From a virus, in IMG/VR virus record IMGVR_UViG_3300045988_162923: a stretch of DNA of 64,000 bases; one strand, 5' to 3'. Below are positions 1,610 through 18,113 of this stretch, piece by piece. Under the pieces are notes generated by a model, which saw only the letters and a program-made list of their open reading frames with translations, was not told where the DNA came from and ran no database searches. Numbering within the stretch: position 1 is the first letter of the stretch; the number at the start of each line of letters is the position of its first letter. The position numbers and the translations under genes are program-made.

Positions 1610-1613
1610 AAAT

Positions 1614-1690
1614 TGGCACTTCATTGAGGACTCGAACCTCAAACCCTCTAATTAGAAATCAGATGCTCTCGTCCATTGAGCTAATGAAGT
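1614..1690 (-). tRNA. tRNA-Arg (anticodon UCU)
   Basis: Acceptor ACTTCAT/ATGAAGT, D stem GCTC/GAGC, anticodon stem TCTGA/TTAGA (one G-U) with loop TTTCTAA, T arm TGAGG-TTCGAGT-CCTCA, CCA encoded. Confidence 0.65.
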
Positions 1691-1777
1691 ATATACTAGA
1701 CATAATTAAATGGTACGTCATTTACTTTAAAAAAAATGGCAAAATATTTAATGTTTGCTGTTTATGCCTTTTTAATA

Positions 1778-1925: not shown

Positions 1926-1928
1926 ATA

Positions 1929-2525: not shown

Positions 2526-2645
2526 ATTAAATTCTCCTTTAATTTAAAAATTTTTCTATTAAATATAAAATTTTAATTTACTGAATTAAAATTTTATGTC
2601 CAAAATTTTCAGCTCCTATTTTTTAAATTATTGGAGTATTTAATT

Positions 2646-2720
2646 GGGGTGACTGGTGGAAATTGAATCCACGACCTTCTGAGCCACAATCAGACGTTCT
2701 ACCAACTGAACTACAGCCAC
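2646..2720 (-). tRNA. tRNA-His (anticodon GUG)
   Basis: GTGGCTGTAGTTCAGTTGGTAGAAC...anticodon loop TTGTGGC...T arm GTGGATTCAATTTCCAC...CAGTCACCCCA. Close to the bacterial tRNA-His consensus. Confidence 0.7.
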
Positions 2721-2721
2721 A

Positions 2722-2798
2722 TGGCATCCCTTGAGAGACTCGAACTCCCAATCTTGTGATTCGTAGTCACACGCTTTATTCCATTAAGCTAAAGGGAT
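2722..2798 (-). tRNA. tRNA-Arg (anticodon ACG)
   Basis: Acceptor ATCCCTT/AAGGGAT, anticodon stem TGTGA/TCACA with loop CTACGAA, T arm GGGAGTTCGAGTCTCTC, CCA encoded. Confidence 0.65.
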
Positions 2799-2803
2799 AA
2801 ATT

Positions 2804-2889
2804 TGGTGCCGGTGGCGGGACTCGAACCCGCACGGTGTTGCCACCGAGGGATTTTAAGTCCCTTGTGTCTGCCATTCCACCACACCGGC
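2804..2889 (-). tRNA. tRNA-Leu (anticodon UAA), type II with long variable arm
   Basis: Acceptor GCCGGTG/CACCGGC, anticodon stem AGGGA/TCCCT with loop CTTAAAA, long variable arm, T-loop GGTTCGAGTCC, CCA encoded. Confidence 0.7.
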
Positions 2890-2930
2890 ATATAAGGGAG
2901 AGATTATTTATCTCTCAACCTTACATATAT

Positions 2931-2959
2931 ATTATATCATAAATTTTTTATAAAATCAA
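2931..2959 (-). promoter_or_regulatory. Consensus promoter TTGATT-17-TATAAT (minus strand), upstream of the His/Arg/Leu tRNA cluster
   Basis: Reverse complement reads TTGATTTTATAAAAAATTTATGATATAAT. Confidence 0.6.
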
Positions 2960-4074
2960 ACAAGATACTTCGTTGTAAAATCAGGAGTATTTTTCTGGAA
3001 AGTAACTTCTTTAATACTCTGAGACTCAGCCTTTTTAATTACAGCCTTGCGCTCATCTTCGTCTTCAATCTGCCAATAATCATCAGGATCAACATAAATC
3101 TTAGTATTTTCACCTTTGATATAAAGCTGTCCATCTCTAAAAGTGATTTTGCTAGGAATAATCGCAAACCGCAATCTATTATCACTCTTAGTATCATATG
3201 CGTCATACCATTCATAAGAAGTCTCAGCCAAATCAATATGACGACCATAAGTTGTATATACTTTACCAGAAGCGAGAGTAACTGTCATATTGAAAGTAAC
3301 AGAACTGCTCTGAGTAATATTAAGATCATTTAGAGTTTCTTCAAGGCTATAACCCTGATTAATTTCAAAAACAATAGCACGCAGATAATCATAAGTCATG
3401 TTAATTGTACGAGAGAAATTAACAATGGAATTAATTACTTCATAATAAGCTGGCAACAACTTATCTTTGAGATATTCTCTAATTTCATTTTCTGTTGGAT
3501 AATTAATCATAAAATGATAATGGAAACGACCGGGACGATTAAGAAGATACTCATTCAACTTACGGGTTTCATTACAAGTAATGACAAAAAGTTTCTTGCC
3601 ATTATCAAGTCCATCGAACAAAGAAAGCATTTCTTCCTGCGGATCACTATGCTCAACTTCGCCAAAAGTCTTTTCAAATTCATCAAAAATAACTACGACT
3701 TCCTGTTCAATAGAGCTAAGAAAATTAGCAATACCCGGAATATATTCATTAACAATGATTACCGGCAATCCATTTTCAATAGCCTTTGCCGCAAGGACGC
3801 GAGCAAATAGAGACTTGCCAATACCTTTCTGACCACTTAAAATAATACCAAAATTACGAGTTGAACACTTATAAGATTTAATTACTTTATTTACTTTTGC
3901 TTCATGATTACCGTAAATCTTTTCTTCATTAATCGACAAATCAGGACGAGAAACCAAGAAAAAGCCAGCCATTTTATTAAAGCTAACTTCAAAAGACATA
4001 GTTGGAAGACGCTTATATGTTTTTACATCTTCACCATAAATTTGAAATCGGCTGCCAGCATTAACAACATTCAT
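2956..4074 (-). CDS. AAA+ ATPase (Walker A GQKGIGKS, Walker B VVVIFDEFEK); standard code
   Basis: 372-aa ORF with no in-frame TAG. P-loop and DExx motifs visible. Embedded between tRNA clusters. Confidence 0.7.
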   Translation of the reverse strand: MNVVNAGSRFQIYGEDVKTYKRLPTMSFEVSFNKMAGFFLVSRPDLSINEEKIYGNHEAKVNKVIKSYKCSTRNFGIILSGQKGIGKSLFARVLAAKAIENGLPVIIVNEYIPGIANFLSSIEQEVVVIFDEFEKTFGEVEHSDPQEEMLSLFDGLDNGKKLFVITCNETRKLNEYLLNRPGRFHYHFMINYPTENEIREYLKDKLLPAYYEVINSIVNFSRTINMTYDYLRAIVFEINQGYSLEETLNDLNITQSSSVTFNMTVTLASGKVYTTYGRHIDLAETSYEWYDAYDTKSDNRLRFAIIPSKITFRDGQLYIKGENTKIYVDPDDYWQIEDEDERKAVIKKAESQSIKEVTFQKNTPDFTTKYLV

Positions 4075-4099
4075 AATTTATATTATCCTTTCTTTCTGT

Positions 4100-4190
4100 T
4101 GGCGCTGGGGGTGGGATTCGAACCCACGGGAGTAATTAGCTCACACAAGTTTTCAAGACTAGGCGCTTATGACCACTTGCGCACCCCAGC
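4100..4190 (-). tRNA. Type II tRNA, probably tRNA-Ser (anticodon UGA) - anticodon stem has one mismatch
   Basis: Acceptor GCTGGGG/CCCCAGC, long variable arm, T-loop GGTTCGAATCC, CCA encoded. Anticodon-loop candidate CTTGAAA. Confidence 0.5.
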
Positions 4191-4367
4191 ATATTCAATT
4201 ACTAGACTCGCAGGACTAGAAAATAAATATTAGAAAAGCAAATAAATCACTTTCCTTATTGAAATACAAAGTTTGTCCAATTACTTACTTTAGATTTTCA
4301 TAATATTTCATCTATCTATTATTAGAAAATATTATTAGTAGTAAATTTTTGCAGTTATCAAGTCTAA

Positions 4368-4459
4368 TGGCGCGGAGGGAGAGATTCGAACTCTCGGACC
4401 GGGTTGCCCCGGTCAAGGGATTAGCAATCCCCCGCACTCGGCCTCTATGCGACCTCCGC
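4368..4459 (-). tRNA. tRNA-Ser (anticodon GCU), type II
   Basis: Acceptor GCGGAGG/CCTCCGC, anticodon stem GGGGA/TCCCT with loop TTGCTAA, long GC-rich variable arm, T-loop GAGTTCGAATCTC, CCA. Confidence 0.7.
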
Positions 4460-4727
4460 ATATATGAAAAATAGAGAGTAAAAAAACGATTTGCTTTACA
4501 GAAAGAGGAGAGAAAACAAAACATGACCACCCATCGAAAGGATGCAAAACAGGAAGTTAAAGAAAAACATAAAACAAACTAGATGTAAAAAACTCTCTCT
4601 ATTGAATAGTTTTTTGTTCCTATATATTCAAATATATAGAAAAGAGTAGTCCTTATTCTTTCAAAGGAATCCCAGCAGCCATACAACATCATTATTCCTA
4701 TATGGATCCTCTCGTGCTGTTCTTCAA

Positions 4728-4804
4728 TGGTGGGCAGAGAAGGTACCGACCCTTCACCCTCTGGTTTTTCAGACCAGTGCTCAGACCTCATAAGCTATCT
4801 GCCC
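4728..4804 (-). tRNA. tRNA-Phe (anticodon GAA) with a non-canonical T-loop (GTCGGTA instead of TTCRANN)
   Basis: Acceptor GGGCAGA/TCTGCCC-A-CCA, D stem GCTT/GAGC (one G-U), anticodon stem CTGGT/ACCAG with loop CTGAAAA, T stem GAAGG/CCTTC. Confidence 0.5.
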
Positions 4805-5150
4805 ATAGAGACAAAAAACAAGACACAATTACTTTCAAATATCATTAGAAATATTTAATGGCTGTTTGTGTCTTTTAATCAATTATAAAGCTATTTAAAT
4901 GTACTTAACCGACTTATTAAAATCACTAGACGTAAAAAGATAATATATAGGACTCGAACCTATTCGTTTTAATTTGCAATTAAAATGTGAAACCAAATCA
5001 CGAAAATTATTCTTAAAGAATATTTGCTGAATACGTCTAACATTATAATGCCTTAGAAGAAACGCAACATCTAAGGACTTACATATTATATTTTATGAAC
5101 AAAATAAGACAATCAAATGAAAAATTGGAGACTGTTCAAATGAATTGAAC

Positions 5151-5224
5151 TGGTTGCGGTCGGCGGAATCGAACCGCGTCTCCGGGTTATGAGCCCAGTA
5201 TCCTACCGTTAGAAGACCACCGCA
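5151..5224 (-). tRNA. tRNA-Met/fMet (anticodon CAU)
   Basis: Anticodon stem CTGGG/CCCGG with loop CTCATAA, T-loop GGTTCGATTCC, CCA encoded. Acceptor has one mismatch. Confidence 0.6.
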
Positions 5225-5225
5225 A

Positions 5226-5302
5226 TGGTGCCTGCCTTTGGATTCGAACCAAATATCTCTAGGGTATGAGTCTAGCGCTTGTTCCTCATAAGCTCCACAG
5301 GC
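5226..5302 (-). tRNA. Second CAU-anticodon tRNA (Met or Ile2-lysidine type); imperfect stems
   Basis: Loop CTCATAC flanked by CTAGA/CCTAG, T arm TTTGGTTCGAATCCAAA, CCA encoded. Adjacent to the other CAU tRNA (typical Met/fMet/Ile2 trio in phages). Confidence 0.5.
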
Positions 5303-5409
5303 ATATTTAATTGTGATGGTTATAAAACTTAATCTAATGCAGGCATCAGACTAATAGAACGCTCCATCAAGTTCTATGCTTCAAAATCGCTTATATCGGG
5401 AAAAGCGAA

Positions 5410-5486
5410 TGGCGATGCTAAGGGGACTCGAACCCCTGACCTTCGGAGAGACAGTCCGACATTCTAGCCAACTGAACTATAGCACC
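5410..5486 (-). tRNA. tRNA-Asp (anticodon GUC)
   Basis: GGTGCTATAGTTCAGTTGGCTAGAAT...stem TCGGA/TCCGA with loop CTGTCTC...T-loop GGGGTTCGAGTCCCC...CCA. Confidence 0.6.
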
Positions 5487-5489
5487 ATA

Positions 5490-6169
5490 TGGTCAGCGCA
5501 AGGGGGATCGAACCCCTACATTCTACCTTTGGTGTTAAGTATAAGATTTGAACTTACATCTTTTCGTACTCTTCTTTTAATCGTTTTATATTTTTACCAT
5601 TTGTAGTATCTAATTGTTGATTGCAATTAGGACAAACCCATCGAAGATTTTCTAATCTATCATCATGATTATGACCATTGACATGATCTAAAATCAAAGT
5701 CAGAGGTTTATCCTACCAAAAAGGTTCTTGCCCGCAAATAGAACATATATAAGGAGTATATTCTCCTTGTAAATAATATTTTCTTAATATTTTCTAATCT
5801 GCGGTAGAATTTTCAATAAAGATATTAGATGGATTTCGTTTTATAGGACGTCTATTTCCTAAAGAAAAATGGTCAGTTGATATATTCAACTAATCTATTC
5901 TTTTTCTAATACGAGTTCCATTATCTCCACTATGAGAACTATATCCTAATTTCTTAGCAACTTCTGCCATAGAACCACTGGATATTACAATTTCTTTAAA
6001 CTATTCATTAGTAAAAGTATCAATTTTTGCTGGCATTTTAAAAATCTCCTATCATTTTTTCTATTATATTTGATTTTTAAGACGCCATCCTTAAAAGAAA
6101 GTGTCCAAAATATTCTTCTTAAACTAACCTAACGAAAGGGTAGTGACTATACCTATTTGTCTATGCGCC
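5490..6169 (-). tRNA. tRNA gene split by a ~610-nt anticodon-loop insertion that contains a complete HNH endonuclease gene plus a tRNA-like mini-helix
   Basis: 5' half CGGCGCA-TA-GAC..GTC-A-CTACC-(ctttcgt...) at 6113-6169. 3' half (..ccaaa)-GGTAG-AATGT-AGGGG-TTCGATC-CCCCT-TGCGCTG-A-CCA at 5490-5530. Anticodon stem CTACC/GGTAG and acceptor CGGCGCA/TGCGCTG pair. The loop begins with the same CTTTCGT as the 539-679 insertion-tRNA. Confidence 0.45.
5554..6036 (-). CDS. HNH homing endonuclease (LDHVNGHNHDDRLENLRWVCPNCN), 4 in-frame TAG codons (recoded); located inside the tRNA anticodon-loop insertion
   Basis: MPAKIDTFTNE-Q-FKEIV... with HNH motif H-x-NGHNHDD...N...CPNC. Continuous only with TAG as sense. 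Confidence 0.65.
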
Positions 6170-6238
6170 GTTAAAAATGTGGGACTTTTGGCGGGAGGCT
6201 CCCACGGGACCTCAGCCTTTTGGTGGTGTAAAAGGCAT

Positions 6239-6314
6239 TGGTGACCCCAGACGGATTCGAACCGCCATCTTAACCTTGAGAGGGTTACCACCTAGCCAAT
6301 TAGTAGATGGGGCC
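6239..6314 (-). tRNA. tRNA-Glu (anticodon CUC) - tentative
   Basis: Acceptor GGCCCCA/TGGGGTC, anticodon stem TAACC/GGTTA with loop CTCTCAA, T-loop GCGGTTCGAATCCGTC, CCA. Confidence 0.55.
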
Positions 6315-6317
6315 AAA

Positions 6318-6500
6318 TTAATTATCAGAAACTAAATTTCTTGACTTTTCTTTTTCTTGTGCGCGTTCATATTTCATTCCCTTACCTTTTTTCGCAGGAG
6401 TTCGAGAACCGCGCCGTTTAAACATCATATATTCTTGAAGTTCATCAGGGCTTTTCTTAAAGATGCGTCTATCAATTTTCTTCTTGGTATTCATTTCCAT
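6318..6500 (-). CDS. Small basic protein (60 aa, K/R-rich)
   Basis: ORF from the track. Composition plausible for a nucleic-acid-binding peptide. No homology claim. Confidence 0.3.
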   Translation of the reverse strand: MEMNTKKKIDRRIFKKSPDELQEYMMFKRRGSRTPAKKGKGMKYERAQEKEKSRNLVSDN

Positions 6501-6618
6501 ATTCCTCCTTCATAAGTCTACACCATTCAAGGAACTGCCATTCAAATTCATCGGATTGGATTTGAGTATCAAAGTCATTGAACATCTTTTTAAATTCCTT
6601 TCTTAACTTTGTAAAAAT

Positions 6619-6648
6619 ATTATATCATATTTTTTTAAAAATGTCAAA
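6619..6648 (-). promoter_or_regulatory. Consensus promoter TTGACA-17-TATAAT (minus strand)
   Basis: Reverse complement reads TTGACATTTTTAAAAAAATATGATATAAT. Confidence 0.6.
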
Positions 6649-6673
6649 AAGAATTTAATATGCTAAATCCTTT

Positions 6674-6757
6674 TGGTGCTCAGAGTGGGACTTGAACCCA
6701 CACGTCTTTCGACAATCGGGTTTGAGCCGATCGCGTCTGCCATTCCGCCACCAGAGC
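6674..6757 (-). tRNA. tRNA-Leu (anticodon CAA), type II
   Basis: Acceptor GCTCTGG/TCTGAGC (one mismatch), anticodon stem ATCGG/CCGAT with loop CTCAAAC, long variable arm, T-loop GGGTTCAAGTCCC, CCA. Confidence 0.65.
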
Positions 6758-7087
6758 ATATCACATTTCGGCGGTTCCGGACCCGCCAAGGCAGTATCAC
6801 CTTAAATAACTTTTATGTCCCCTCTTAAAAAGTCATTCACAAAAAAGCTGGCTTTATGGTTAAGCCTTACCCTCTTTTCCATTTTTCCTTTTGCGTAAAG
6901 CAGTCCAAACAATCAAAAGAGTAAGCATAAAAGATAGCTCCAAGTGATTTATAGACTAACTTGATAAGTCTCGCAGCATCACATATTTTCCAAGTAACTA
7001 ATAAGGTTTAGCTGCCATTTTTCATAAATATAATCTATAATAATAATCCTATATTACATTATGGGCGATTATCATTCCCGTTCTAAT

Positions 7088-7165
7088 TACCATTACCTCA
7101 TTTGGATTCGAACCAAAAACTCCACCCTCTACTGGGCGGCGTGTTTCCATTACACCATAAGGCTT
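7088..7165 (-). pseudogene. tRNA-like sequence with intact T-arm but unpairable acceptor/anticodon stems and no U33 (probable tRNA pseudogene or non-canonical tRNA)
   Basis: T arm TTTGG-TTCGAAT-CCAAA present. Anticodon region CAGTAGA/AGTAGAG ambiguous. No CCA. Confidence 0.25.
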
Positions 7166-7230
7166 ATTAGCAACTTATTTACATAACGATGGAGTTGCCA
7201 ACCACCGGATAGTACAAAGATATCGGCTTA

Positions 7231-7306
7231 TGGTACCGGCGAAAGGACTCGAACCTTCAGATTAATGATCCTAAATCATTCGCCTATGCCATTCGGCTAC
7301 ACCGGT
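7231..7306 (-). tRNA. Type I tRNA with anticodon UAG (would decode CUA, a Leu codon, despite lacking the long variable arm of bacterial tRNA-Leu)
   Basis: Acceptor ACCGGTG/CGCCGGT (one G-U), anticodon stem AATGA/TCATT with loop TTTAGGA, 5-nt variable region AATCT, T arm GAAGG-TTCGAGT-CCTTC, CCA encoded. Confidence 0.55.
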
Positions 7307-7527
7307 ATATGGTGGAAAGAAGTATTTCACCTTTTATAGCGCGCTTCTCCCCGTTCCCGCGCTACCCCTCTCCCAATTAGCTTGATTATGAGAGGATTTT
7401 ACTATGAAGTTCATCATAGTTACCCGATTTCCCTTTGCCTCAGTTTATTTTTAATTGGTCTATTGCCAACGGCAGGTGACTAATCTACCTAGTTCAAACC
7501 GGAAACCCCATGTATAAGACCAATAAT

Positions 7528-7602
7528 GGCGGATACAGAAGGGCTCGAACCTTCGACCCACGGTTTAACAGACCGTTGCTCTGCCAACTGAGCTATGCAT
7601 CC
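7528..7602 (-). tRNA. tRNA-Asn (anticodon GUU)
   Basis: GGATGCATAGCTCAGTTGGCAGAGC...stem ACGGT/ACCGT with loop CTGTTAA...GGTTCGAGCCC...CCA. Confidence 0.7.
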
Positions 7603-7900
7603 ATATTAAATCGCCCTTTTCTTTAACGGTACTTCACAAGTAGGCTAACTCCCGACTTCCTCTTCAAGTTCCAACCAGAATTACTGATGCTCACTGTGTC
7701 TATTTTTCCTCCCATACAGTTTGGATGAATTTTATTTTAGATGACAAAAATAAAATTTAGTTTTAATTGGATTTCACCAAGGAGAGCTTTTTTGTTATTC
7801 GTTCTTTTCATCACTAAGTATGAAGCATCCATCACTCTCGCACAACGTCATCAGCAAGTTTATTGACTCCATCTGAACTGTCATAAAGAAAATTTTCATT
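7603..7900 (-). ncRNA. ~300-nt non-coding region between a consensus promoter (7921-7949) and tRNA-Asn; candidate structured ncRNA or long tRNA leader
   Basis: No ORF in either code. Contains a long A/T hairpin (AAATTTTATTTT...AAAATAAAATT). Transcribed from the promoter on its right. Confidence 0.25.
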
Positions 7901-7920
7901 TTCTTTCATTTGATATAAAT

Positions 7921-7949
7921 ATTATATCATATTTTTTATAAAAAATCAA
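7921..7949 (-). promoter_or_regulatory. Consensus promoter TTGATT-17-TATAAT (minus strand)
   Basis: Reverse complement reads TTGATTTTTTATAAAAAATATGATATAAT. Confidence 0.6.
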
Positions 7950-7989
7950 AAAAGATTTTTTAACTAAACAAAACAAGACAACTTTTTTA

Positions 7990-8065
7990 ATTACGCTGCT
8001 CTACCACTTGAGCTATCGTTTGTAAATTAATACGCACGAGTTGGACTCGAACCAACAACACACGG
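7990..8065 (-). ncRNA. Two juxtaposed tRNA fragments in non-cloverleaf order: a 3' half (T-arm + acceptor 3' strand, 8040-8065) followed by a 5' half-like piece (acceptor/D-arm AAACGATAGCTCAAGTGGTAGAGC, 7990-8030)
   Basis: T arm GTTGG-TTCGAGT-CCAAC-TCGTGCG on the minus strand directly after promoter and leader. D-arm consensus GCTCAAGTGGTAGAGC follows it. The two pieces cannot pair as one tRNA. Confidence 0.3.
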
Positions 8066-8126
8066 ATTACCAATCAATTTAAAAAATTAAAATTGCTGTA
8101 ATTGTCTTTCTTTATCTTACATATAT

Positions 8127-8155
8127 ATTATATCATAAATTTTTTATAAAATCAA
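8127..8155 (-). promoter_or_regulatory. Consensus promoter TTGATT-17-TATAAT (minus strand) followed by conserved leader AAGATAAAGAAAGACA
   Basis: Reverse complement reads TTGATTTTATAAAAAATTTATGATATAAT. Identical to the 2931 and 8388 copies. Confidence 0.6.
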
Positions 8156-8171
8156 AAAATAACTTTTTGAC

Positions 8172-8245
8172 TGGCAGGGGCGCTCCGACTCGAACGGAGA
8201 GTCCCGGTTTTGGAGACCGGTGGTTTACCATTAACCGACACCCCT
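8172..8245 (-). tRNA. tRNA-Trp (anticodon CCA)
   Basis: Acceptor AGGGGTG/CGCCCCT (one G-U), anticodon stem CCGGT/ACCGG with loop CTCCAAA, T-loop CCGTTCGAGTCGG, CCA encoded. Confidence 0.7.
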
Positions 8246-8271
8246 ATAAAATCAAGACTTATAAATTATTT

Positions 8272-8343
8272 TTCCAGAGCGTGGATTTGAACCACGGTCT
8301 TCAGGATTTTACTCTGATAGGCTATCCTCTACCCCACTTCGGA
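8272..8343 (-). tRNA. tRNA, anticodon unresolved (loop AGTAAAATC; 4-bp anticodon stem)
   Basis: Acceptor TCCGAAG/CTCTGGA (one mismatch), T arm CGTGG-TTCAAAT-CCACG. No encoded CCA. Confidence 0.45.
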
Positions 8344-8475: not shown

Positions 8476-9435
8476 TCAATATCTATCATAGTCTGTATAA
8501 GGAATTCTTAATAAAGGAATATTATTTTTTTTACAATATTTATCCTTCATTTTATCATGTTCAATAACTTTATCTGTATGCCATATACTTGATTGATTAA
8601 AATGCTATTTACCATCATATTCAATTAATTTTAAAACTTTTCCGTTATGATCTAAAATAGCAAAATCAAATCGTAAATAATTTTTATCTTTTAAATCATT
8701 AAAAGTATATTCCTAAATAAAAGAAATATTATTATTTATTAAAATTTTTTTTATTAAATTTTCTCCTAATGAATTCCCTATGCATCCACAGGACTAAGTA
8801 AGTCCCTATAATAGGCTTGATTGCCGAATACTTTTAATATTTCCACAATCACATTGACATACCCAATATGCCTTGTCTTTTTGTTCTTCATCTTTATGTA
8901 GAGCAATTAATTTACCGAATCTTCGTCCAACTAAATTTAATCTTTTAGATTGAATTCCTAAAGGCTAAATATTTTCTATCATATTTATTTTTGCTTTTTC
9001 TTTCTATAAACATCCACAAGACTGAGTATGTTCTGATTTTAAAGATGAAGTAGTAACATTTACAATATTTCCACAGTCACATTTACATTCCCAATAAGAA
9101 GCAGTATTATTTAATTCTTTTCGCTTTAAAATAGTATATTCTTTATTAAAAGATAATACTGTTAATTTACCAAATTTTTGTCCCGATAAATCATCATAAA
9201 AGCTCGGATTATCTTTACGATTTCGATTAATATTTCCTTTTAAACGATTCTCTTTTCCTAAACAACCGCAAGATAAAATTTTTCCATTACGCAAATCAGC
9301 ACCACGAATATTTTTTATTATCCCACAATCACACTAGCATTTCCATAAAAGCTTATTAGAATTATCATGTCCAGCTTCTTCTAAAACTATTAATCTACCA
9401 AAACGCTAATCTATTAAATTTATTTTTTTACCCAA
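8476..9435 (-). CDS. Homing-endonuclease-like protein: three Zn-ribbon repeats (RFGKL..W.C.CDCGN..SCGC) + C-terminal PD-(D/E)XK / DUF559-like nuclease domain (RFDFAI..IEYDGK-Q-HF); TAG-recoded; start approximate (TTG at 9435)
   Basis: ORF-track fragment 9004..9294 is the middle repeat. Full reading frame continuous with TAG=Q. TAG sits at the Q of the DGKQH motif, which is CAA in the paralogue at 22523-23323. Confidence 0.6.
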
Positions 9436-9448
9436 AAATAGACCTTCT

Positions 9449-9500
9449 TTCTGTTCTTCTTTTAATATTATTAAGAAATCTACTTAGAAGAAGAACAGAA
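9449..9500 (-). terminator. Hairpin (12-bp stem TTCTGTTCTTCT/AGAAGAACAGAA) + U-tract on minus strand; terminator after gene 9511-9807
   Basis: Perfect inverted repeat seen in sequence, followed on the minus strand by TCTATTTTT. Confidence 0.45.
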
Positions 9501-9808: not shown

Positions 9809-10546
9809 TTAACTTTCTCCTTTTTTTACAAGATATTTATCACTAAATATCATTTCTATTGTTATATTATTTTTTTCCCAATAAGGAATTCGAACAAGAG
9901 GAATATTATGTTCAAAAGCAAAATAATTTTTTATTAAATCAGATTGCTAAGTCCGTTCAAAAGATTCTCTTCCCCATTTAGCTGGCTTAAAATGCTATTC
10001 ACCATCAAATTCAACCAGTCTAATTAAATTATTATCTTTATCAAAAATAGCAAAATCATATCTTTTATTTTTTAATTCAGAAAATTTAAATTCTTTAGCA
10101 AAAGAAATATTATTTTCTTCTAAAATATCTATAATTTTCTATTCCCCTAAAGATATTCCATTTTTACATCCACAGCTGCTAGTATTTCCACTTCTTAATT
10201 CTGCCCCAGCAACAGATACGATATTTCCGCAATCACATCTACAAATCCATTTTACTTTTCCATTAATACTTTTTGATACTGTATCTTTATATAAAACAGT
10301 TAATTTACCATATTTATTACCAGTCTCATCTTTTCCAATTGCTTCAAAAACTTTTTCATTTCGTAAGCATCCACAACTTTTTGTTGCTCCATTTTTTAAA
10401 CTTAAAGCAGCAATACTTTTTTGATTCCCGCAACTACACTAACAAATCCAATATGTTCTATGATGCTTCTTAGAGGCTTCTTCATCTTTTTTTAAAACAG
10501 TTAATCGTGAAAAAACTTTTCCAATTAAATCTTCAGATTTTGGCAT
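9809..10546 (-). CDS. Homing-endonuclease-like protein: two Zn-ribbon repeats + DUF559-like PD-(D/E)XK domain ([21 protein letters not shown]); TAG-recoded
   Basis: [18 protein letters not shown]...YWIC-Q-CSCGN...SCGC. RBS AAGGAAGAATTTATATG. 4 in-frame TAGs. Confidence 0.6.
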
Positions 10547-10637
10547 ATAAATTCTTCCTTTCTCTATATCTTCTAATTATATTAAATTTTAAGATAAGAA
10601 AATTGAAAAATTTTGTCCATCTTTTTATCTAAAAATT

Positions 10638-12083
10638 TTAATTTGTCCCTTCGCCATTATTAGCCTCCATTATTTTCTTCTCTAATTTATTACATTCATC
10701 AAAAACTAATTGCTTTAAATCAAATGGTTCTCCTCGTTCCATATCTTCTGAACACCAAGGACATAAATATTTATGATATTCCTCATTATATTTCATAGAA
10801 CTGCGATAATATCCATTACCGCATCTATCACAAGTCATACATTCATTTTTAAAGCAATCACTACAAACTATTTCGTCTGAATCAACATAATAAGCTTCAT
10901 CTAATAATATTCTGCGACCACAACAGTCACAATATCCAAAAATATCATTTTCACTATCACCATATGCTAATTCACAACTATCACATCGCATAAAATCACT
11001 ATGCTCAATTAATGATTTACCACAATTTAAACAATTAATTTCTCCGCCAATATCCCAATGCCATTCATCAGCATCACTAGCATAAAATCCTCTCGATCGG
11101 ACTGCTATATAAGGTCGATAGCATGAAGAATTTATCAAATCATCAAATTGTAAAGAATTTTTAGCATCTGCTACTTTATCTCTAATTGGATAAATTTTCC
11201 CACCAATTGCAATATAATCAGTATCTAAAGGATATTGCTTACCAGAAATTTTATCAGTATAGCCAGTAATATTACTATCTTCCCATTTATGAAACTCTAC
11301 TCCCATATTATTTAAACACATAGAAATAGTCTCTAAGGCGCTTAAAGTAGAAAGAGGATATTGCCGACCCGCAAAAATTGCTCTCCAATTCTTTTCAAAG
11401 AAAATTAATACTCTCCATTTTTTAGAATTCCAAAGCACATCTTCAGGAAAATTAGGTAATCTTACCCCATCAGCACCTTTTAAATAACAAATTACAGTTG
11501 ATTTATCAACCATATATGAAAGATTTCCTGCGCGATACTCACCGTCAAGCGCATGGCAAGACCGCCAATTATAAGTATTCTCACTTGAACTTAAAAAATC
11601 AAGTGGATGAACTGATATACATAACTTACCCTCAATCTTATCCTCTTGGATAACACGGCTTGCGCTATTTTGAATATCATTCAATAAGTCTTTATCAGAA
11701 ATAAAATACTTAAATGCTTTAACTAGTTTCATGCCTATTGGAATAATTTTACCATCAGGTAATTTATATTCTTCAATAACTTGATTAGTAAAAAATCCAT
11801 CTCTATTAATTTCAATAAAATCAATTAAATCATAATTGCTATATAAGCAATCAATTGTATCCAAAAAATTATTTAAATTCTTTTGTTTTTCTCTTTTATC
11901 AAGCTTTAAATGTAATACATACGGATATTCATAAATTAGATTACCACCAAATAATTCAATAAAATCTCTTTTAGCGTCTAAAAATCTATTAAATAATTCT
12001 TCTGTTTTAGGATTTTCAATTCCTTGTGAATAACGAATTACTTCATCGAATTGTTTTTTAATTTCTCTGATGTCGAATGACAT
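10638..12083 (-). CDS. Cys-rich protein, paralogue A (conserved N-domain + C-terminal multi-CxxC zinc-ribbon cluster); standard code
   Basis: 481-aa ORF. Shares ...C-SxHP-DF/Y...W.SC....E.R.G......WNxKKWR with 14938..16566. C-terminus CLNCG..CDSC..CDCCG..CSDC..CDRCG..CPWC. Confidence 0.65.
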   Translation of the reverse strand: MSFDIREIKKQFDEVIRYSQGIENPKTEELFNRFLDAKRDFIELFGGNLIYEYPYVLHLKLDKREKQKNLNNFLDTIDCLYSNYDLIDFIEINRDGFFTNQVIEEYKLPDGKIIPIGMKLVKAFKYFISDKDLLNDIQNSASRVIQEDKIEGKLCISVHPLDFLSSSENTYNWRSCHALDGEYRAGNLSYMVDKSTVICYLKGADGVRLPNFPEDVLWNSKKWRVLIFFEKNWRAIFAGRQYPLSTLSALETISMCLNNMGVEFHKWEDSNITGYTDKISGKQYPLDTDYIAIGGKIYPIRDKVADAKNSLQFDDLINSSCYRPYIAVRSRGFYASDADEWHWDIGGEINCLNCGKSLIEHSDFMRCDSCELAYGDSENDIFGYCDCCGRRILLDEAYYVDSDEIVCSDCFKNECMTCDRCGNGYYRSSMKYNEEYHKYLCPWCSEDMERGEPFDLKQLVFDECNKLEKKIMEANNGEGTN

Positions 12084-13060
12084 TCAAGTAGGCCTCCTGC
12101 GCAATCATTACAAATTTTCTTAGGATTATTTGGATCAATTTCAAATGGTTCTCCACAATTATCGCACCATTCAATATTTTCTACCATACAATCAGGGCAG
12201 TAAAAACAAGTCTTACCATCTAATCCTTTCACAGGAAAGACCTCATAACCAGAAAATAATCCCTTACATTTCTTACAATGAACATAAAAATCATTATCAC
12301 CTGCGGCTCCATTACTATTATATAAATCTTGGAACCATCTTTTAGCAGATAAACTAAATTCAATATATTTAAAATCTGGGATAGATTCTTTTTGAAGCAT
12401 CTTTTTAACTTTTTCAATAGTATTTAAAAGAGCACTAATATTTAGAGTTTCAATATATGTGTGTTCATTTTCATAACCAACTGATAAATTTGTGCTACAA
12501 ACCTGCCAAGCTGGTCCTAAAATACTAATATCAGAAAAACTACCAAAATCTTCAATAAATCCAAAAGATTCAATATATGCTATAAAATCGTCATTATCAC
12601 ATGAATAGAATACACAATCATTTTTTCCTTGTCTATCCAATTCAATCATATACTTTAACTGCGGAAATGGACAATTCTCTTGAGCCAATACAGATGCTCC
12701 AATGCCGCCTTGTTCTTCATCAGTAGTAAAAATGATATGTGGACGCAAATTTGTAGAACGTAATATCTGAATAATCGCATATACGCCTGCTCGATCATCA
12801 GCTCCAAGGCCCTGCGGACTCCACATAACATTTTTTCTTGTATCATAATATAATTCAGAAACAGGTTTAGGAAAAACTGTATCCATATGGGCTACAAGAG
12901 CGATCGGAATATCACCGACGGCATAAATATAATCCGCAGTAGTTTTTACTGTTTTGTATTTACTCTGAAGAAAATAAGACATAGTTTTAAGTAAGCTGCC
13001 CTGTTTCATTTTAAATAGCTGCTCTAATGTCTCATATTCTTTTGCTTTCAACCCACGCAA
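12038..13060 (-). CDS. M42/M20-family metallopeptidase-like domain (HMDTV...GADDRAG...TDEEQG) fused to C-terminal zinc ribbons; standard code
   Basis: 340-aa ORF. Motifs typical of co-catalytic metallopeptidases. C-terminal CKKCKG..CFYCPDC..CDNCG..CNDC. Overlaps upstream gene by 46 nt. Confidence 0.55.
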   Translation of the reverse strand: MRGLKAKEYETLEQLFKMKQGSLLKTMSYFLQSKYKTVKTTADYIYAVGDIPIALVAHMDTVFPKPVSELYYDTRKNVMWSPQGLGADDRAGVYAIIQILRSTNLRPHIIFTTDEEQGGIGASVLAQENCPFPQLKYMIELDRQGKNDCVFYSCDNDDFIAYIESFGFIEDFGSFSDISILGPAWQVCSTNLSVGYENEHTYIETLNISALLNTIEKVKKMLQKESIPDFKYIEFSLSAKRWFQDLYNSNGAAGDNDFYVHCKKCKGLFSGYEVFPVKGLDGKTCFYCPDCMVENIEWCDNCGEPFEIDPNNPKKICNDCAGGLLECHSTSEKLKNNSMK

Positions 13061-13096
13061 TTAAAAATTTCTCCTTATATTCTATTTTGTAATTAT

Positions 13097-13125
13097 ATTA
13101 TATCATATTTTTTAATTATTGTCAA
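13097..13125 (-). promoter_or_regulatory. Consensus promoter TTGACA-17-TATAAT (minus strand) driving 12038..13060
   Basis: Reverse complement reads TTGACAATAATTAAAAAATATGATATAAT. Confidence 0.55.
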
Positions 13126-13915
13126 TAATGCTCTCTGGGTGCGTAAAACCAACACCTTTAGTCCAGTAATCTTTATTCTTATCTACTTCTCGACTAAACT
13201 TTAGCGCAGTTTCACAAAAGCTACAAGCACTTCCACTTTGGCATCTTTGCTTACATTTAATACGCATCGGCGCAAATTCATCAGGGATGCCGCGATTATC
13301 GACATTATATTTCAAATTAGTCAATAAGAGATTTAAATTACCGGGCCATAATTCTTCTTTATAAATTCCTAATAAAGTTGCCTCTTTTTCTAAACTATCG
13401 GTATCAAATTGAATAGTATCCACATATGCGCTATAAACTTTTACATCTTCTGGACGAATATAAAATCCACGGATTCCATTTTTACGAGGAATAAAGCCAT
13501 CATAACATACATTAGCAATTACTCGAATCGGTAATCCTATCTTCTTCACTTCTGGAAGTTGAAAAGTTAGTGGAACACCTAAAAATAATTGTTTTACACC
13601 TAAATCAACTAATCCATTTAATTCATACCATGTAGTAATTGGATAAGCCCAATAATAATTAATTGAACGTGAATTACACTCACTTGCCATAAATATATTT
13701 TCAATAGCAAGAGTAAGTTTTACTTTTTCAGAGAACATTTTTAATTCGTCCCAATCAATCTATGGAGTATTCTTTGGAATACGAATTACATACTCTTTAT
13801 CATAAAAATCATCAATAATATTATATAAGCCTTCAATATCTTTATAATCAAGCATAATTTCATCAGCTACGCGCTTATTTGCCGCAGACTACCGAATTGA
13901 TACGGAATATTTCAT
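13112..13915 (-). CDS. Hypothetical protein (267 aa) with C-x3-C-x5-C-x2-C cluster; N-terminal 59 codons include two TAG codons (recoded) upstream of the track ORF 13112..13738
   Basis: Consensus promoter at 13925-13953 and RBS AAGGAGTG sit directly in front of the ATG at 13915. The frame is continuous into MFSEKVKL... only if the two TAGs are read as sense. Confidence 0.45.
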
Positions 13916-13924
13916 ATTATATCA

Positions 13925-13953
13925 CTCCTTATATATATTATAACTTATTTTTG
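13925..13953 (-). promoter_or_regulatory. Consensus promoter TTGACA-17-TATAAT (minus strand)
   Basis: Reverse complement reads TTGACATTTGTGCAAAAATAAGTTATAAT, followed by AAGGAG and the ATG at 13915. Confidence 0.55.
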
Positions 13954-14043
13954 CACAAATGTCAATAAAAATTAGTAAGCAATCTTTTATTTTTGGTTTT
14001 ACGAGTGATGCGTCCATCGCTGGCCGGAGCAGACCCTATAAAA

Positions 14044-14072
14044 AAAGGACTGGGAAATTTCCCAGTCCTTAA
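14044..14072 (-). terminator. Rho-independent terminator for minus-strand gene 14082..14498 (AGGACTGGG-AAATTT-CCCAGTCCT + U-run on minus)
   Basis: Perfect 9-bp stem. A7 tract on the plus strand to the left, which is a T-run on the minus strand after the hairpin. Confidence 0.55.
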
Positions 14073-14081
14073 TACGCTATA

Positions 14082-14498
14082 TTAGCCGTTAATTCGACGA
14101 TAGCCATTAACGGTTCTCTTCTTAGAAGTCTCAGTCGCAGGAATCGTAATTTCAGACTTCTCAACCTCGCCGGCCTTAACCAGAGAAGACAGGCGGTAAG
14201 AAACCTTCGCCGCAGTAGCATCCGGCTCCTCTTCAGCAACCATCGCAGTTACATCAGCAATAGACTTAAACTCATCGGTAGCCAAAGCCGCACGAACCAG
14301 AGCAGTCAGAATATCACCCTCAGCAGCCTTCGCCGCAGCACGTTCCTTAGCCTTTGCTGCCTTCTTATCAAGCAGGTCAATTTCATTCTCACAGAACGAA
14401 ATAACCTCAGCCGGATCATAGCGGCATTCGCCAGTCTTCATAGCCTCAGCAATTGCTTCATACATTTCACGCTTCGTAATCTTTTCCATAATTAACAC
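14082..14498 (-). CDS. Ala/Lys-rich small protein (138 aa), possibly histone-like/DNA-binding; standard code
   Basis: ORF from the track. Locally GC-richer. Preceded by two tandem consensus promoters (14543-14571, 14640-14668). Confidence 0.5.
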   Translation of the reverse strand: MLIMEKITKREMYEAIAEAMKTGECRYDPAEVISFCENEIDLLDKKAAKAKERAAAKAAEGDILTALVRAALATDEFKSIADVTAMVAEEEPDATAAKVSYRLSSLVKAGEVEKSEITIPATETSKKRTVNGYRRING

Positions 14499-14542
14499 CT
14501 TTAACCTTTCATTTTTAAAGTTTATTTATTCTTTGTATATTT

Positions 14543-14571
14543 ATTATATCTTATTTTTTGTTAAAAATCAA
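14543..14571 (-). promoter_or_regulatory. Consensus promoter TTGATT-17-TATAAT (minus strand)
   Basis: Reverse complement reads TTGATTTTTAACAAAAAATAAGATATAAT. Confidence 0.55.
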
Positions 14572-14639
14572 TTAAGATTTAAAGTCGGGGTAAAAGTTTT
14601 TTCTTTATTTCTCTTACCCTTTCTTTATCTTACATATAT

Positions 14640-14668
14640 ATTATATCTTATTTTTTATTAAAAATCAA
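14640..14668 (-). promoter_or_regulatory. Consensus promoter TTGATT-17-TATAAT (minus strand), tandem with 14543
   Basis: Reverse complement reads TTGATTTTTAATAAAAAATAAGATATAAT, preceded by the conserved leader. Confidence 0.55.
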
Positions 14669-14850
14669 ATAACTTTTTTGAAATCGACAAATTGTTCATA
14701 ATGTTCCTTTAAAGTATCTGCTGCTTTTTCAGTCATTTCTTCTTCTGGAATAGTTACTAATCCATCTTTTAATTGTTGAAAAGTAGTCCCTATTGCTCTA
14801 TAAGATTCAATAGCTTCTTGTAAAGCTTTATTTAAACTATCCCATAACAT
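14665..14850 (-). CDS. Small hypothetical protein (61 aa)
   Basis: ORF from the track. Confidence 0.35.
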   Translation of the reverse strand: MLWDSLNKALQEAIESYRAIGTTFQQLKDGLVTIPEEEMTEKAADTLKEHYEQFVDFKKVI

Positions 14851-14937
14851 ATCTTCTAGAGGATTAGTTATTTTTGCTTCTTGCTAATAATCAGAGGCTC
14901 TATATACTAAAGTAGATCCACGCGCCTAAGACTAAGA

Positions 14938-16566
14938 CTAATCTTTCAAACTGTCAAGGAACCATTGCCGGCCTTCTTTACTATTAATGGAAAAAATATC
15001 ACGTAGTCTATCAGCAGCTTCACTATCCGATTCAATCAAAGTTTCAAAATCTACTCGATAATGAACTCCAAAAGATGACTGGATAGGATCACTAATAATT
15101 AATCCAGTTTCTTCATAATCACTCTTACAATTGTAACAAAGATAAGCAGAACGCCAAGTTAATTTATTATCTTTATAAAGACGAATTTCATTCAAATACT
15201 CATTATAAAAAGCGTCGCCACAGTCTTCACACGTGCCAGCTTTTTCAGTATAACAGTCATAGCACAAACAAGTATCATCGTCAATCCAATAGTAATCATC
15301 ATTATGAATAATATCACCACAACATTTACATCTTATGGCATTAGAGCAATTATCACAAAGCAACATACAAGTATCACTAATATCACAAATCTCTTCGCCA
15401 CAATTCATACATTCACTATAGCCAGAATAATCAATATCAATTTCGTGCGGTGCTTCGATGCCAATAAAACATTTTTGATTTTTGGAATAAACATCATTAT
15501 ACATCTTATCACAATAGATGTTAATTGAATAGGGCTTATCATTCAATTCCAAACAAAAATTATTATAATCAGCATCACGGAAGTTATTATAATAAGTACA
15601 AAGATTACTATATTGCCAACCAAGATTAGTAGCCGCAAGATCTCTAATCCATTTCATACAAAGACCATTTAATTCATCATTATGCCAAGGATACTGACGA
15701 ATATCACTAATCAAATCTTTGGTGATAATATAAAGCTGACGCCATTTCTTATTATTCCAATGTGAAAGCTTCTCACCCCAGCCAAATTCCATATCTTCTT
15801 TTGCGCGAAGATAAGCAACAAGGACGCAAGGAGAGTTCATCATTTCAACAGTGCCAATACGATAATCGCCTTCATTACGCCAATTCATACAACTGTCCCA
15901 ATCGCAGTCATTATCACTCATGGTCACATAATCCATAGGATGAATTGACAAACAAAGTGTACCTTTAATAGTATCTTGATTTAAAAATTGAGAATGGGCA
16001 ATTCTAAATTCTTCATATTTTGCTTCTGACAGCTCAAAGAATTTTGTCAACTTACCAAGTAATTTACTGATTTTGGCACCTTTATTGACTAACATTGTTT
16101 GTCCATCATCACTACGAGTAATAGTAAAAGTATCACCCGTATAAATATTATTATGAAGGCTTTCAAAAGTAGTTAGCTCTCTCAAAGCCATAATGTCTTC
16201 AAGCCGATTTACTTTATAAAGAGGATCATGATAGCTTTCTGGCGTCTCAAGATTTCTTTTATCAGCAGTAAAGTCTTGATATTCACGAATAAACTTATAA
16301 CCAATCCGCCAATAACCAAGACAATCTTCAAAATCAGATCTAGACTGGCGCTCAGAACGTTTAAAAGTTACATCTTTGGAAATAGTAAATTTTTCACCAA
16401 GCATCTTCCAAAGAGTTACTTTCTCCTTATCCCAAAACCGTAAAATATGATCGACATTTTCTACATCAAGATCAGGATCTTTATCGTCACTCATACCGCC
16501 ATACATATTGATCCAATTACAAAATATTGATTTATCTTCATTACTTAAATAATTGCATAAAGCCAT
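14938..16566 (-). CDS. Cys-rich protein, paralogue B (N-domain homologous to 10638..12083 + C-terminal multi-CxxC cluster); standard code
   Basis: 542 aa. Shared GTLCLSIHPMDY...WNNKKWRQLYIITKD block. C-terminus CMNCGEEIC..CDNC..CKCCG..CYDC..CEDCG..CYNC. Confidence 0.65.
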   Translation of the reverse strand: MALCNYLSNEDKSIFCNWINMYGGMSDDKDPDLDVENVDHILRFWDKEKVTLWKMLGEKFTISKDVTFKRSERQSRSDFEDCLGYWRIGYKFIREYQDFTADKRNLETPESYHDPLYKVNRLEDIMALRELTTFESLHNNIYTGDTFTITRSDDGQTMLVNKGAKISKLLGKLTKFFELSEAKYEEFRIAHSQFLNQDTIKGTLCLSIHPMDYVTMSDNDCDWDSCMNWRNEGDYRIGTVEMMNSPCVLVAYLRAKEDMEFGWGEKLSHWNNKKWRQLYIITKDLISDIRQYPWHNDELNGLCMKWIRDLAATNLGWQYSNLCTYYNNFRDADYNNFCLELNDKPYSINIYCDKMYNDVYSKNQKCFIGIEAPHEIDIDYSGYSECMNCGEEICDISDTCMLLCDNCSNAIRCKCCGDIIHNDDYYWIDDDTCLCYDCYTEKAGTCEDCGDAFYNEYLNEIRLYKDNKLTWRSAYLCYNCKSDYEETGLIISDPIQSSFGVHYRVDFETLIESDSEAADRLRDIFSINSKEGRQWFLDSLKD

Positions 16567-16606: not shown

Positions 16607-16635
16607 ATTATATCAAATTTTTATATAAAAATCAA
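16607..16635 (-). promoter_or_regulatory. Consensus promoter TTGATT-17-TATAAT (minus strand) driving 14938..16566
   Basis: Reverse complement reads TTGATTTTTATATAAAAATTTGATATAAT. Confidence 0.55.
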
Positions 16636-16675
16636 TTCCCCTCTCTGCGGCCAAACAAAGAGGGGAATCTTTTGA
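16635..16675 (-). terminator. Hairpin terminator (ATTCCCCTCT...AGAGGGGAAT + CTTTTG)
   Basis: 10-bp inverted repeat seen in sequence, between gene 16698..18113 and the promoter at 16607. Confidence 0.45.
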
Positions 16676-16697: not shown

Positions 16698-18113
16698 TTA
16701 CTTCTGCTGATTACTAAGCAACATCATCGGAAGGAGCTTATCCTTCATCGAAGCGCCGTCCGCTTCATCAGAAGCAAGAAAATACAACATCATAGGATTC
16801 ATATTGCTCATATTGCCACCATTTGCCAGCATAGACATCATAAGAATATCCTTCATATCCATGTCCTTATTGTCATCGCTCATCATCATCAACGGCAGCA
16901 TATTACCAAAAGGCATATCAGAAGACGGCTGAGTTACACCATTCATATCGAACAAAGAAACAATCTTTGTAACAAAATCGAAATGGAACATATTACGCAT
17001 CGGCATAATAGTTTTCTTCTCACCAGCACGGATATCAACCGCGATCAAATCACCAGTGTTCTCAGCAAAACCAACTACAAACATCGGGGTTCTATTATGG
17101 ATAATAACATCGCCGACCTTAACATCCTTAATAGCGACCGGCAGCTTAAACATATACTTAGCGCCATCAAAGTTGAACACATCAACGTCGATAATTTCAC
17201 CGCTCGCCGCATCATAAGATACATAAGTGCCGGCGGCATTCTTAATAGCGATACCATACATAGACATTCTCACATTATCATTTGCACACGGACCAAAATC
17301 AAAATTACCAAACTTCATTTTATTATTTTCCTTTCTTTTATCCCATTCTTCGTTAAAAATTTTTCGTGCTGTATCTTCAATACTATCAGCAAGAGAAATA
17401 GTACTTGTTGTGATAGGAGAAGAGCTGATAGAATATCCATCAATAGCTTTCCCAGAACCAATATTATAATCTCCTACTTGAATAGTTGTTGCTGAGCTAG
17501 TACTACCAACAGTAACAGTAGCACTTGTAGTGCTAGAAGTAGAACCAATATTTTCTGATTGAGAAGCAAAAGCTGTGGGCTGAACACTATTATAATAATC
17601 CGATGTTGCTAATTTTACTTTATTTAAAGCCTCTTTAACTTCTTGAGAACTCATAATATATTCAGTGCCTTGCTTTACAACATCATCAACAAGTTTAAAA
17701 TTATTAATAATTTCTTTATTATTATCAATATTCTTGATATATTCTTTATGCTTAATATACTTATCTTCTGTATCATCTTTAGAGGTGGAAGTCCAAAGTG
17801 CTTTATCGAGATAATCATTAGTACAATAAATCATCTCTAGTTTATCATCATCCCAGAACAAATCATACAGAAAATCGCCAAATGAACTATCATGGCGTTC
17901 AAAAGAAATCATTGTGCGAGGCTTCCCATTACGATCCTCACCCAAAGTAAGATATGCTCTACCATGAATATTAAGAATAAACATTCTGCCATCTTCAATA
18001 GCAGTTTTAATTTTGCGCCAATCATCTCGTGGCATTTTCTGATAATATTTAGCACTTACTTGATAGCTAAATTCATCAAAAATGCGCTTCATTTGATTAG
18101 TAGTAATAATCAT
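16698..18113 (-). CDS. Hypothetical protein (471 aa) with Met/Asp-rich low-complexity C-terminus; standard code
   Basis: Long ORF from the track. No recognisable motif. Confidence 0.55.
   Translation of the reverse strand: MIITTNQMKRIFDEFSYQVSAKYYQKMPRDDWRKIKTAIEDGRMFILNIHGRAYLTLGEDRNGKPRTMISFERHDSSFGDFLYDLFWDDDKLEMIYCTNDYLDKALWTSTSKDDTEDKYIKHKEYIKNIDNNKEIINNFKLVDDVVKQGTEYIMSSQEVKEALNKVKLATSDYYNSVQPTAFASQSENIGSTSSTTSATVTVGSTSSATTIQVGDYNIGSGKAIDGYSISSSPITTSTISLADSIEDTARKIFNEEWDKRKENNKMKFGNFDFGPCANDNVRMSMYGIAIKNAAGTYVSYDAASGEIIDVDVFNFDGAKYMFKLPVAIKDVKVGDVIIHNRTPMFVVGFAENTGDLIAVDIRAGEKKTIMPMRNMFHFDFVTKIVSLFDMNGVTQPSSDMPFGNMLPLMMMSDDNKDMDMKDILMMSMLANGGNMSNMNPMMLYFLASDEADGASMKDKLLPMMLLSNQQK

Follow-up and report, generated by a model that had tools for sequence, protein, structure and literature searches.

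The window analysed here is a stretch of viral DNA of 64,000 nucleotides (nt; IMG/VR record IMGVR_UViG_3300045988_162923). Our subject is a group of minus-strand genes in it that encode a zinc peptidase, PEP, and two paralogous proteins, P1 and P3, which share a domain that we named SCM. The three open reading frames (ORFs) reported for this region in the initial annotation, which was made from the letters of the window, are all present on the minus strand, as follows.

10638-12083, minus strand: P1, 481 amino acids (aa), ATG start, SCM-domain paralogue (ORF list)
12038-13060, minus strand: PEP, 340 aa, TTG start, clan-MH dinuclear zinc peptidase (ORF list)
14938-16566, minus strand: P3, 542 aa, ATG start and TAG stop, SCM-domain paralogue

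The start of P1 overlaps the 3' end of PEP by 46 nt, and P3 is located approximately 2 kb upstream of the PEP-P1 pair. A megablast search of the region against the phage collection returned no matches.

The sequence motifs HMDTV (residue 58), GADDRAG (residue 86) and TDEEQG (residue 113) of PEP had been taken as those of a co-catalytic zinc aminopeptidase, and they align one to one with the motifs that supply the metal ligands and catalytic residues in peptidase T. Peptidase T (PDB 3gb0) is also the top PDB sequence match of PEP, and the correspondence can be followed residue for residue through HMDTV, GADD(R/K)AG, (D/G)EE, LD and (N/E)xHT. The predicted metal ligands are H58, D88, E116, D142 and H200, with D60 and E115 as catalytic residues, and all seven are invariant in 27 PEP homologues and in an Enterococcus phage protein. 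The catalytic domain (approximately nt 12356-12943) has the features of clan MH, namely an alpha/beta fold, ligands in the order His, Asp, Glu, Asp/Glu, His, and catalytic HxD and EE; both the peptidase fold and the metal ligands, on which the earlier reading depended, are thus in place. The TTG start codon is supported by the N-terminal sequence MR.L...(D/E)Y, which the homologues share.

The family assignment "M42/M20-like" proved roughly correct, as the closest structures belong to M20B, but the Pfam models for M20 (PF01546, 23.7 bits, cut-off 24.6) and M42 (PF05343, 21.1 bits, cut-off 23.2) scored below their cut-offs and the NCBIfam PepT model far below its own, whereas M28 (PF04389) scored just above its own (24.0 bits versus 21.3, covering profile positions 15-99 of 193). 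Precomputed PF04389 assignments were found on several PEP homologues, and PHROGs 34186, 4191 and 21791 match PEP, two of these three being named "peptidase". In the comparison with M20, only about 215 of 373 residues align. The M20 lid/dimerisation domain of about 150 residues, which in peptidase T (PepT, MEROPS M20B; PDB 3gb0 and 1vix) lies between ligands four and five, is absent, so that residues 147-172 of PEP span residues 170-319 of PepT. Conversely, two features of PEP are missing from PepT, namely an N-terminal extension of two helices and the LIM-like zinc-finger tail. Since the PEP model contains no extra domain, it also lacks the PDZ-like oligomerisation domain of the M42 aminopeptidases (TET/PepA), and the signal peptide/pro-region of secreted M28 enzymes (Aeromonas and Streptomyces aminopeptidases) is not found in PEP; sequence identity to M28 and M42 aminopeptidases is 13-19%. 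PEP is a lid-less, single-domain clan-MH dinuclear zinc hydrolase whose active site appears to be intact.

P1 and P3 are 27% identical over 359 residues (E=9e-30), in an alignment that takes in both the motif block quoted previously, LC.S.HP.D...W.SC...Y...WN.KKWR, and the cluster of Cys residues. Their paralogy is thereby borne out, but the common domain had been placed at the N-terminus and is in fact central: it occupies residues 110-330 or so of P1 (approximately nt 11079-11771) and about 160-380 of P3 (approximately nt 15442-16083), and over their first 100-160 residues P1 and P3 are unrelated. About 2000 homologues were found for each paralogue (90% clustering), all unnamed, and a joint P1/P3 profile recovered a metagenomic family of 6917 clusters at 50% identity. 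None of the family members found carries a name or a Pfam domain, and the best 150 of the 6917 matches are close relatives only, with no remote links or fusions among them. In support of the earlier reading, the conserved domain matched no known family in Pfam, NCBIfam, PADLOC and PDB profile searches; moreover, none of the four module proteins queried against the PADLOC defence and anti-defence models matched at E<=1.

The confident AF2 (AlphaFold2) model of P1 (pLDDT 87.4, pTM 0.78) shows the SCM domain as an alpha/beta domain with an R-x-Y-P/G turn, and the single low-confidence loop of the model directly follows the invariant pair Ser175-Cys176. Invariant in both paralogue families are D162, S167, N169, W173, S175, C176, G181, Y183, R184, G186, Y200, W218, K221, W223, R224, Y242 and P243. 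The topology is weakly reminiscent of the GNAT acyltransferases, but no GNAT family was matched by sequence, the scores fall far short of what genuine members reach, and the invariant Ser-Cys pair has no GNAT counterpart; the SCM domain belongs to no described family. A papain-like or E2-like identity was rejected owing to the lack of a conserved His after the Cys and to the wrong topology, and PTP/rhodanese-like and ATE/L-F-transferase-like assignments of the motif were dropped for want of the required residues, topology or structural matches.

The C-terminal Cys clusters, previously described as zinc ribbons with 6-8 CxxC pairs in P1 and P3, contain six pairs in each paralogue (three zinc sites) and four in PEP (two zinc sites), and are located at approximately nt 10746-11045 (P1), 15121-15423 (P3) and 12095-12289 (PEP). 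The tails of PEP and of the paralogues are indeed related (hhalign probability 82%, E=1e-5), but they are LIM-like and not simple zinc ribbons. The P1/P3 family profile matched the LIM domain of CRP2 in the PDB at E=4.8e-6, followed by CRP1, MLP, PINCH and FHL, and in a Foldseek search of P1 against viral models (BFVD) proteins annotated as LMO2/LIM matched the C-terminal part. A canonical LIM domain reads C-x2-C-x16-23-H/C-x2-C-x2-C-x2-C-x16-21-C-x2-C/H/D, with an inter-finger spacer of two residues. The tails share with the eukaryotic LIM domains (CRP1/CRP2, PINCH, FHL) the tandem four-Cys fingers and the spacing within fingers, but their inter-finger spacers are of 14 and 7 residues (range 7-14), and the Pfam LIM model (PF00412) matched none of the module proteins. 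The tails are therefore LIM-like tandem zinc fingers, not canonical LIM domains.

The association of such modules with peptidases is a theme met elsewhere. Prokaryotic treble-clef domains of the LIM, B-box and AN1 types were reportedly proposed as peptidase partners by Burroughs, Iyer and Aravind in 2011, and plant DA1 combines LIM with a metallopeptidase; PEP differs from these in being a cytosolic clan-MH enzyme and not a membrane or zincin peptidase. Additionally, an "amidoligase enzyme" of an uncultured phage (BFVD A0A6J7X5D3) has the LIM-like finger part in common with P1 (109 columns, 26% identity), and in phages this type of finger module may also occur on other enzymes that modify peptides. 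The earlier description of P1 and P3 as zinc-ribbon partners was right as to the presence of zinc fingers, but both, with their invariant Cys, have the appearance of enzymes or of adaptors with several domains, and not of mere accessories.

A check for co-occurrence in related phages, which the initial annotation had suggested, revealed a strong association that extends to unrelated phages. Among cultured phages, sequence relatives of the SCM proteins were found only in Enterococcus phages of 134-142 kb; Enterococcus phage H1 has three paralogues (H1_1, H1_5 and H1_7), and its peptidase, H1_6, lies between the latter two. Members of the PEP peptidase family occur in 416 phage records. In seven phages, Klebsiella CX1 (Drulisvirus), Vibrio MGD1, Pectobacterium Nobby, Shigella Buco, Pseudomonas C171, Bradyrhizobium BDU-MI-1 and Cellulophaga phi38:1, a hypothetical protein of 440-715 aa directly adjoins the peptidase. 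All seven partners contain (G/P)-x-SCM and, after it, a Tyr, a strand of the form GR-A-hydrophobic and an R-x-Y-G turn. At least one conserved C-terminal Cys is common to the six partners other than that of the Cellulophaga phage, and CxxC-type zinc-ribbon pairs are clear in those of the Klebsiella, Vibrio and Buco phages. The numbers of phage records that encode the family of the Klebsiella partner protein and the peptidase are nearly the same, as listed below.

Klebsiella phage records: partner family 232, peptidase 231
Vibrio phage records: partner family 42, peptidase 42
Pectobacterium phage records: partner family 39, peptidase 44
Escherichia phage records: partner family 10, peptidase 10

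The KP34-type "peptidase" of the Autographiviridae (PHROG 4191) belongs to the same family as PEP according to tblastn and PHROG, and its partner (PHROG 6980/13313), encoded immediately upstream of it, has the G/P-S-SCM motif, the R-x-Y-G turn and a C-terminal zinc ribbon. The Autographiviridae differ from the window in that their peptidase has no zinc-finger tail and a single partner, whereas PEP has the tail and two paralogous partners. In Foldseek searches the P1 model retrieved the partners of Klebsiella KpV48 and Shigella Buco (E of about 1e-6, probability 0.99-1.0), that of Vibrio DE17 (E of about 1e-6, probability 0.97) and, at a similar level, two Dickeya JA29 proteins; the matches to Pectobacterium Nobby (E 2.8e-3, probability 0.44) and CB5 (E of about 3e-3, probability of about 0.4) were weak. 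When the SCM family of the window was compared with the Autographiviridae partners using hhalign, only the zinc ribbon was aligned. Since the profile link is weak, the connection rests on Foldseek, the short motif and gene context, and P1 and P3 are likely homologous to the podophage partner proteins. The peptidase has been listed among the proteins that PhiM1-like phages share with KP34, with no function stated, and it counts among six ORFs that are conserved in the early region of the PhiM1-like group (PMC6115819). Literature on the peptidase, on the peptidase-partner pair and on LIM-like domains in phages yielded genome-annotation mentions only.

In a scan of species-representative genomes we detected 32 loci, all on contigs of metagenome-assembled genomes (MAGs), several of them 150-176 kb long and most binned with Clostridia, Lachnospiraceae or Acutalibacteraceae. 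The order P3-type SCM gene, gap, PEP, P1-type SCM gene was observed in at least 15 of the 32 by means of hidden Markov models. The gap is occupied in about 20 loci by P138 and P269, with P138 always between the P3-type gene and P269 (21 loci), and P471 lies directly upstream of the P3-type gene in 13, so that the conserved block comprises six genes. In the 126-kb ENA locus L002 the order of homologues (P471, P3 type, P138, P269, PEP, P1 type) is exactly that of the window, with the P471 homologue at 4820-5827 of L002. The three further members of the block are the following.

13112-13921, minus strand: P269, syntenic protein, 208-aa ORF under the standard code
14082-14498, minus strand: P138, small syntenic protein
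16698-18113, minus strand: P471, 471 aa, C-terminal region rich in Met and of low complexity

Pfam, NCBIfam, PADLOC and PHROG provided no functional name for P1, P3, P138, P269 or P471.

Assignment of the module to the early region, already made in the initial annotation, is upheld by perfect sigma-70 promoters and by the lack of TAG codons in P1, PEP and P3. The window contains 29 perfect TTGACA-N16-18-TATAAT sites, where 0.09 would be expected by chance. The promoter and terminator-like signals of the module are as follows.

13097-13125, minus strand: promoter before PEP, TTGACA-17-TGATATAAT, extended -10, 37 nt upstream of the start codon
13937-13965, minus strand: promoter before P269, perfect TTGACA-17-TATAAT
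14045-14070, minus strand: strong terminator-like hairpin upstream of the P269 promoter
16607-16635, minus strand: promoter-like site for P3, TTGATT-17-TGnTATAAT
16634-16669, minus strand: terminator-like hairpin after the gene upstream of P3, overlapping the P3 promoter-like site

PEP and P1, which overlap, are predicted to form one transcription unit and to be co-transcribed. Together, P1, PEP and P3 contain no TAG among 1363 codons, as against about 18 expected at the rate of the TAG-containing genes of the window. The host-type promoters and this compatibility with the standard code both suggest early expression.

We tentatively propose that these genes form an early phage enzyme module in which PEP and the SCM proteins act jointly on peptide or protein substrates in early infection, a reading to which we give somewhat less than an even chance. 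Joint action on such substrates is suggested by the open active site of PEP, which suits polymer termini, and by the LIM-like modules, which typically bind peptides; the divergence of the N-terminal regions of the paralogues points to multiple targets. According to this proposal, PEP would trim N-terminal residues of peptides or proteins, the SCM domain would either modify the same substrates chemically (by acyl or aminoacyl transfer via its Cys/Arg site) or bring them in, peptides or partners would dock on the zinc fingers, and the divergent N-terminal regions would give P1 and P3 distinct target specificities. The idea of a transferase draws on the GNAT hint, the invariant Cys and Arg, and the R-x-Y-G/P turn; an adaptor is the alternative. 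We infer catalysis, the cooperation of the proteins, the nature of the substrates and the purpose, which would be host takeover or counter-defence.

It is important to mention that several observations weigh against this proposal. Among the structures closest to PEP are also small-molecule deacylases such as ArgE and DapE, and zinc fingers of this kind can bind nucleic acids as well. In the locus L031 (CANQLH010000040.1), P471, P138, P269 and the P1-type gene are kept and neither a peptidase nor a P3-type gene is detectable, and Bacillus phage Izhevsk and Lactococcus phage LW31 encode the peptidase with no SCM protein within 4-5 kb. Moreover, when the trimmed cores of the window and Autographiviridae families were compared using hhalign, SCM was aligned on SCM over 174 columns, but at a non-significant level (probability 2%, E=0.024).

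The main rival explanation, which we regard as rather unlikely, is that the module belongs to a small-molecule pathway, in which acyl or aminoacyl transfer would fall to a GNAT-like SCM domain, and PEP would be an amidohydrolase of the ArgE/DapE/PepT type. The substrate would be a metabolite, a signalling molecule, a nucleotide or a DNA-base adduct, and protecting-group logic or the destruction of a host defence signal are examples of what such a pathway might do. The structural closeness of PEP to ArgE and DapE fits this explanation, as does the presence in the block of P269, a conserved four-Cys protein. However, PEP lacks the lid/dimerisation domain that M20 hydrolases of small molecules use to enclose the substrate and to complete the active site, all three proteins carry LIM-like modules of a typically peptide-binding kind, the expansion of paralogues with divergent N-terminal regions resembles a diversification of targets more than it does metabolism, and no further biosynthetic genes are found in the block.

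It is less likely still that the SCM proteins are non-enzymatic, DNA- or RNA-binding regulators or scaffolds, adjacent to the peptidase as a consequence of shared early regulation, and that the peptidase works by itself, for instance as an aminopeptidase of general function that raises the amino-acid supply or matures nascent proteins. Such a division would account for the phages with a solitary peptidase, and it is compatible with the lack of a confident enzymatic homologue of the SCM core, with the nucleic-acid binding common among zinc ribbons, and with the position of the Autographiviridae pair, directly 5' of the genes for primase and helicase. Weighing against it are the strict adjacency, gene overlap and near-identical phyletic distribution of the two families in at least eight phage lineages, the invariant polar and Cys residues of the SCM core, which are typical of an active site, and the homology of the PEP tail to the tails of its partners.

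A role of the peptidase in late virion maturation or structural-protein processing is very improbable: many phage peptidases are prohead proteases, and one Klebsiella and one Vibrio record call the partner a "putative structural protein", but the promoters of the module are perfect and of host type, TAG is absent from its three genes and abundant in the structural genes at 50-63 kb, the module lies far from the portal and capsid genes, the Autographiviridae pair is positioned in the early region, and exopeptidases of clan MH are not known to serve as prohead proteases.

The joint action of PEP and the SCM proteins on peptides or proteins can also be framed more specifically, in a form that we consider quite unlikely: the SCM domain would be a hitherto unrecognised GNAT-derived, Cys-dependent transferase for protein N-termini or side chains that, together with PEP, edits the N-termini of selected proteins early in infection by trimming and then re-tagging or blocking them. 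Were this so, the editing of N-termini would redirect host or phage proteins to host proteolysis or defence sensors, or shield them from these, and an N-terminus-editing module would be common to phages of gut Bacillota to Enterococcus phages and to KP34-like, Vibrio and Pectobacterium podophages.

The PEP family as such is already known and widely annotated in phages, in hundreds of genomes that include the KP34-like Klebsiella phages used in therapy research. The SCM partner domain, the LIM-like decoration and the possible occurrence of one pair across phages of gut Bacillota, Enterococcus phages and several podophage genera appear to be undescribed. A single candidate two-component module joins a metagenomic family, the Enterococcus paralogues and a hypothetical protein of the Autographiviridae. 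The candidate Ser-Cys active-site motif and the predicted early expression offer a tractable experimental entry in cultured phages, and study of the module could reveal new host-takeover or counter-defence chemistry.

Several features of the neighbourhood concern the codon TAG, which is used as a sense codon at 50700-63200 (plus strand) and at 8476-9483, 9809-10576 and 13112-13921 (minus strand), and is probably decoded as Gln. Translation across TAG would lengthen the product of the portal gene to 565 aa (55129-56826, 7 TAG) and those of the late genes next to it to 355-586 aa (3-10 TAG each). No suppressor tRNA with a CUA anticodon was found in the window. The third of the minus-strand intervals is P269, which contains two in-frame TAG codons in its N-terminal part, the first of which aligns with a Gln of the L002 homologue. 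Eight of the 20 tabulated P269 homologues (L012, L016, L017, L020-L022, L024 and L029) also have in-frame TAG codons, 1-3 each, mostly in the N-terminal third, and the neighbouring genes are TAG-free; the full-length P269 product may be gated by TAG decoding. Beta and alpha elements alternate in P269, and the motif R-x2-C-x3-C-x5-C-x2-C near its C-terminus is invariant; the P269 profile gave nothing significant against the PDB and Pfam.

The 3' end of P3 reads TAG-TCT-TAG-TCT-TAG, with a fourth in-frame TAG beyond, and the frame runs on into a 61-aa ORF (14665-14850, minus strand). Database calls for relatives of P3 with 85-97% identity are of 630-633 aa, which corresponds to P3 with TAG read as Gln; more distant loci have no homologue of the 61-aa extension. 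There may thus be two forms of P3, a short one and a long one that depends on TAG.

Most of the perfect promoter sites of the window are located at 31013-47220 on the minus strand, with others at 6619, 50582 and 50689, and many have a TG extended -10. They occur every 0.3-1 kb before short ORFs, in a region of higher GC content at 32-48 kb. A second recoding at 32-48 kb, considered as an explanation for the missing long ORFs, was ruled out, as this region is full of short genes. The array at 31-47 kb looks like a set of early promoters for the host RNA polymerase, and its density, together with the binning of the MAG contigs, points to a host in the Bacillota.

Downstream of P1, at 8476-9483 and 9809-10576 on the minus strand, two ORFs are rich in TAG (8 and 4 codons, respectively). 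They contain repeated zinc-finger units of the form W-x-C-x-C-D-C-G-N ... S-C-G-C and a C-terminal region like small phage endonuclease domains (FDFAI.D ... EYDG..H), and are possibly homing-endonuclease-like genes between the module and a tRNA array. This array comprises about 21 tRNA genes at 542-8343 on the minus strand. Rfam added two tRNAs that ARAGORN had missed, at 542-679 (138 nt, interrupted) and at 5155-5223 (CAT anticodon), and in the tRNA at 7093-7164 the anticodon loop is unusual, as ARAGORN assigns to it the four-base anticodon "gtag".

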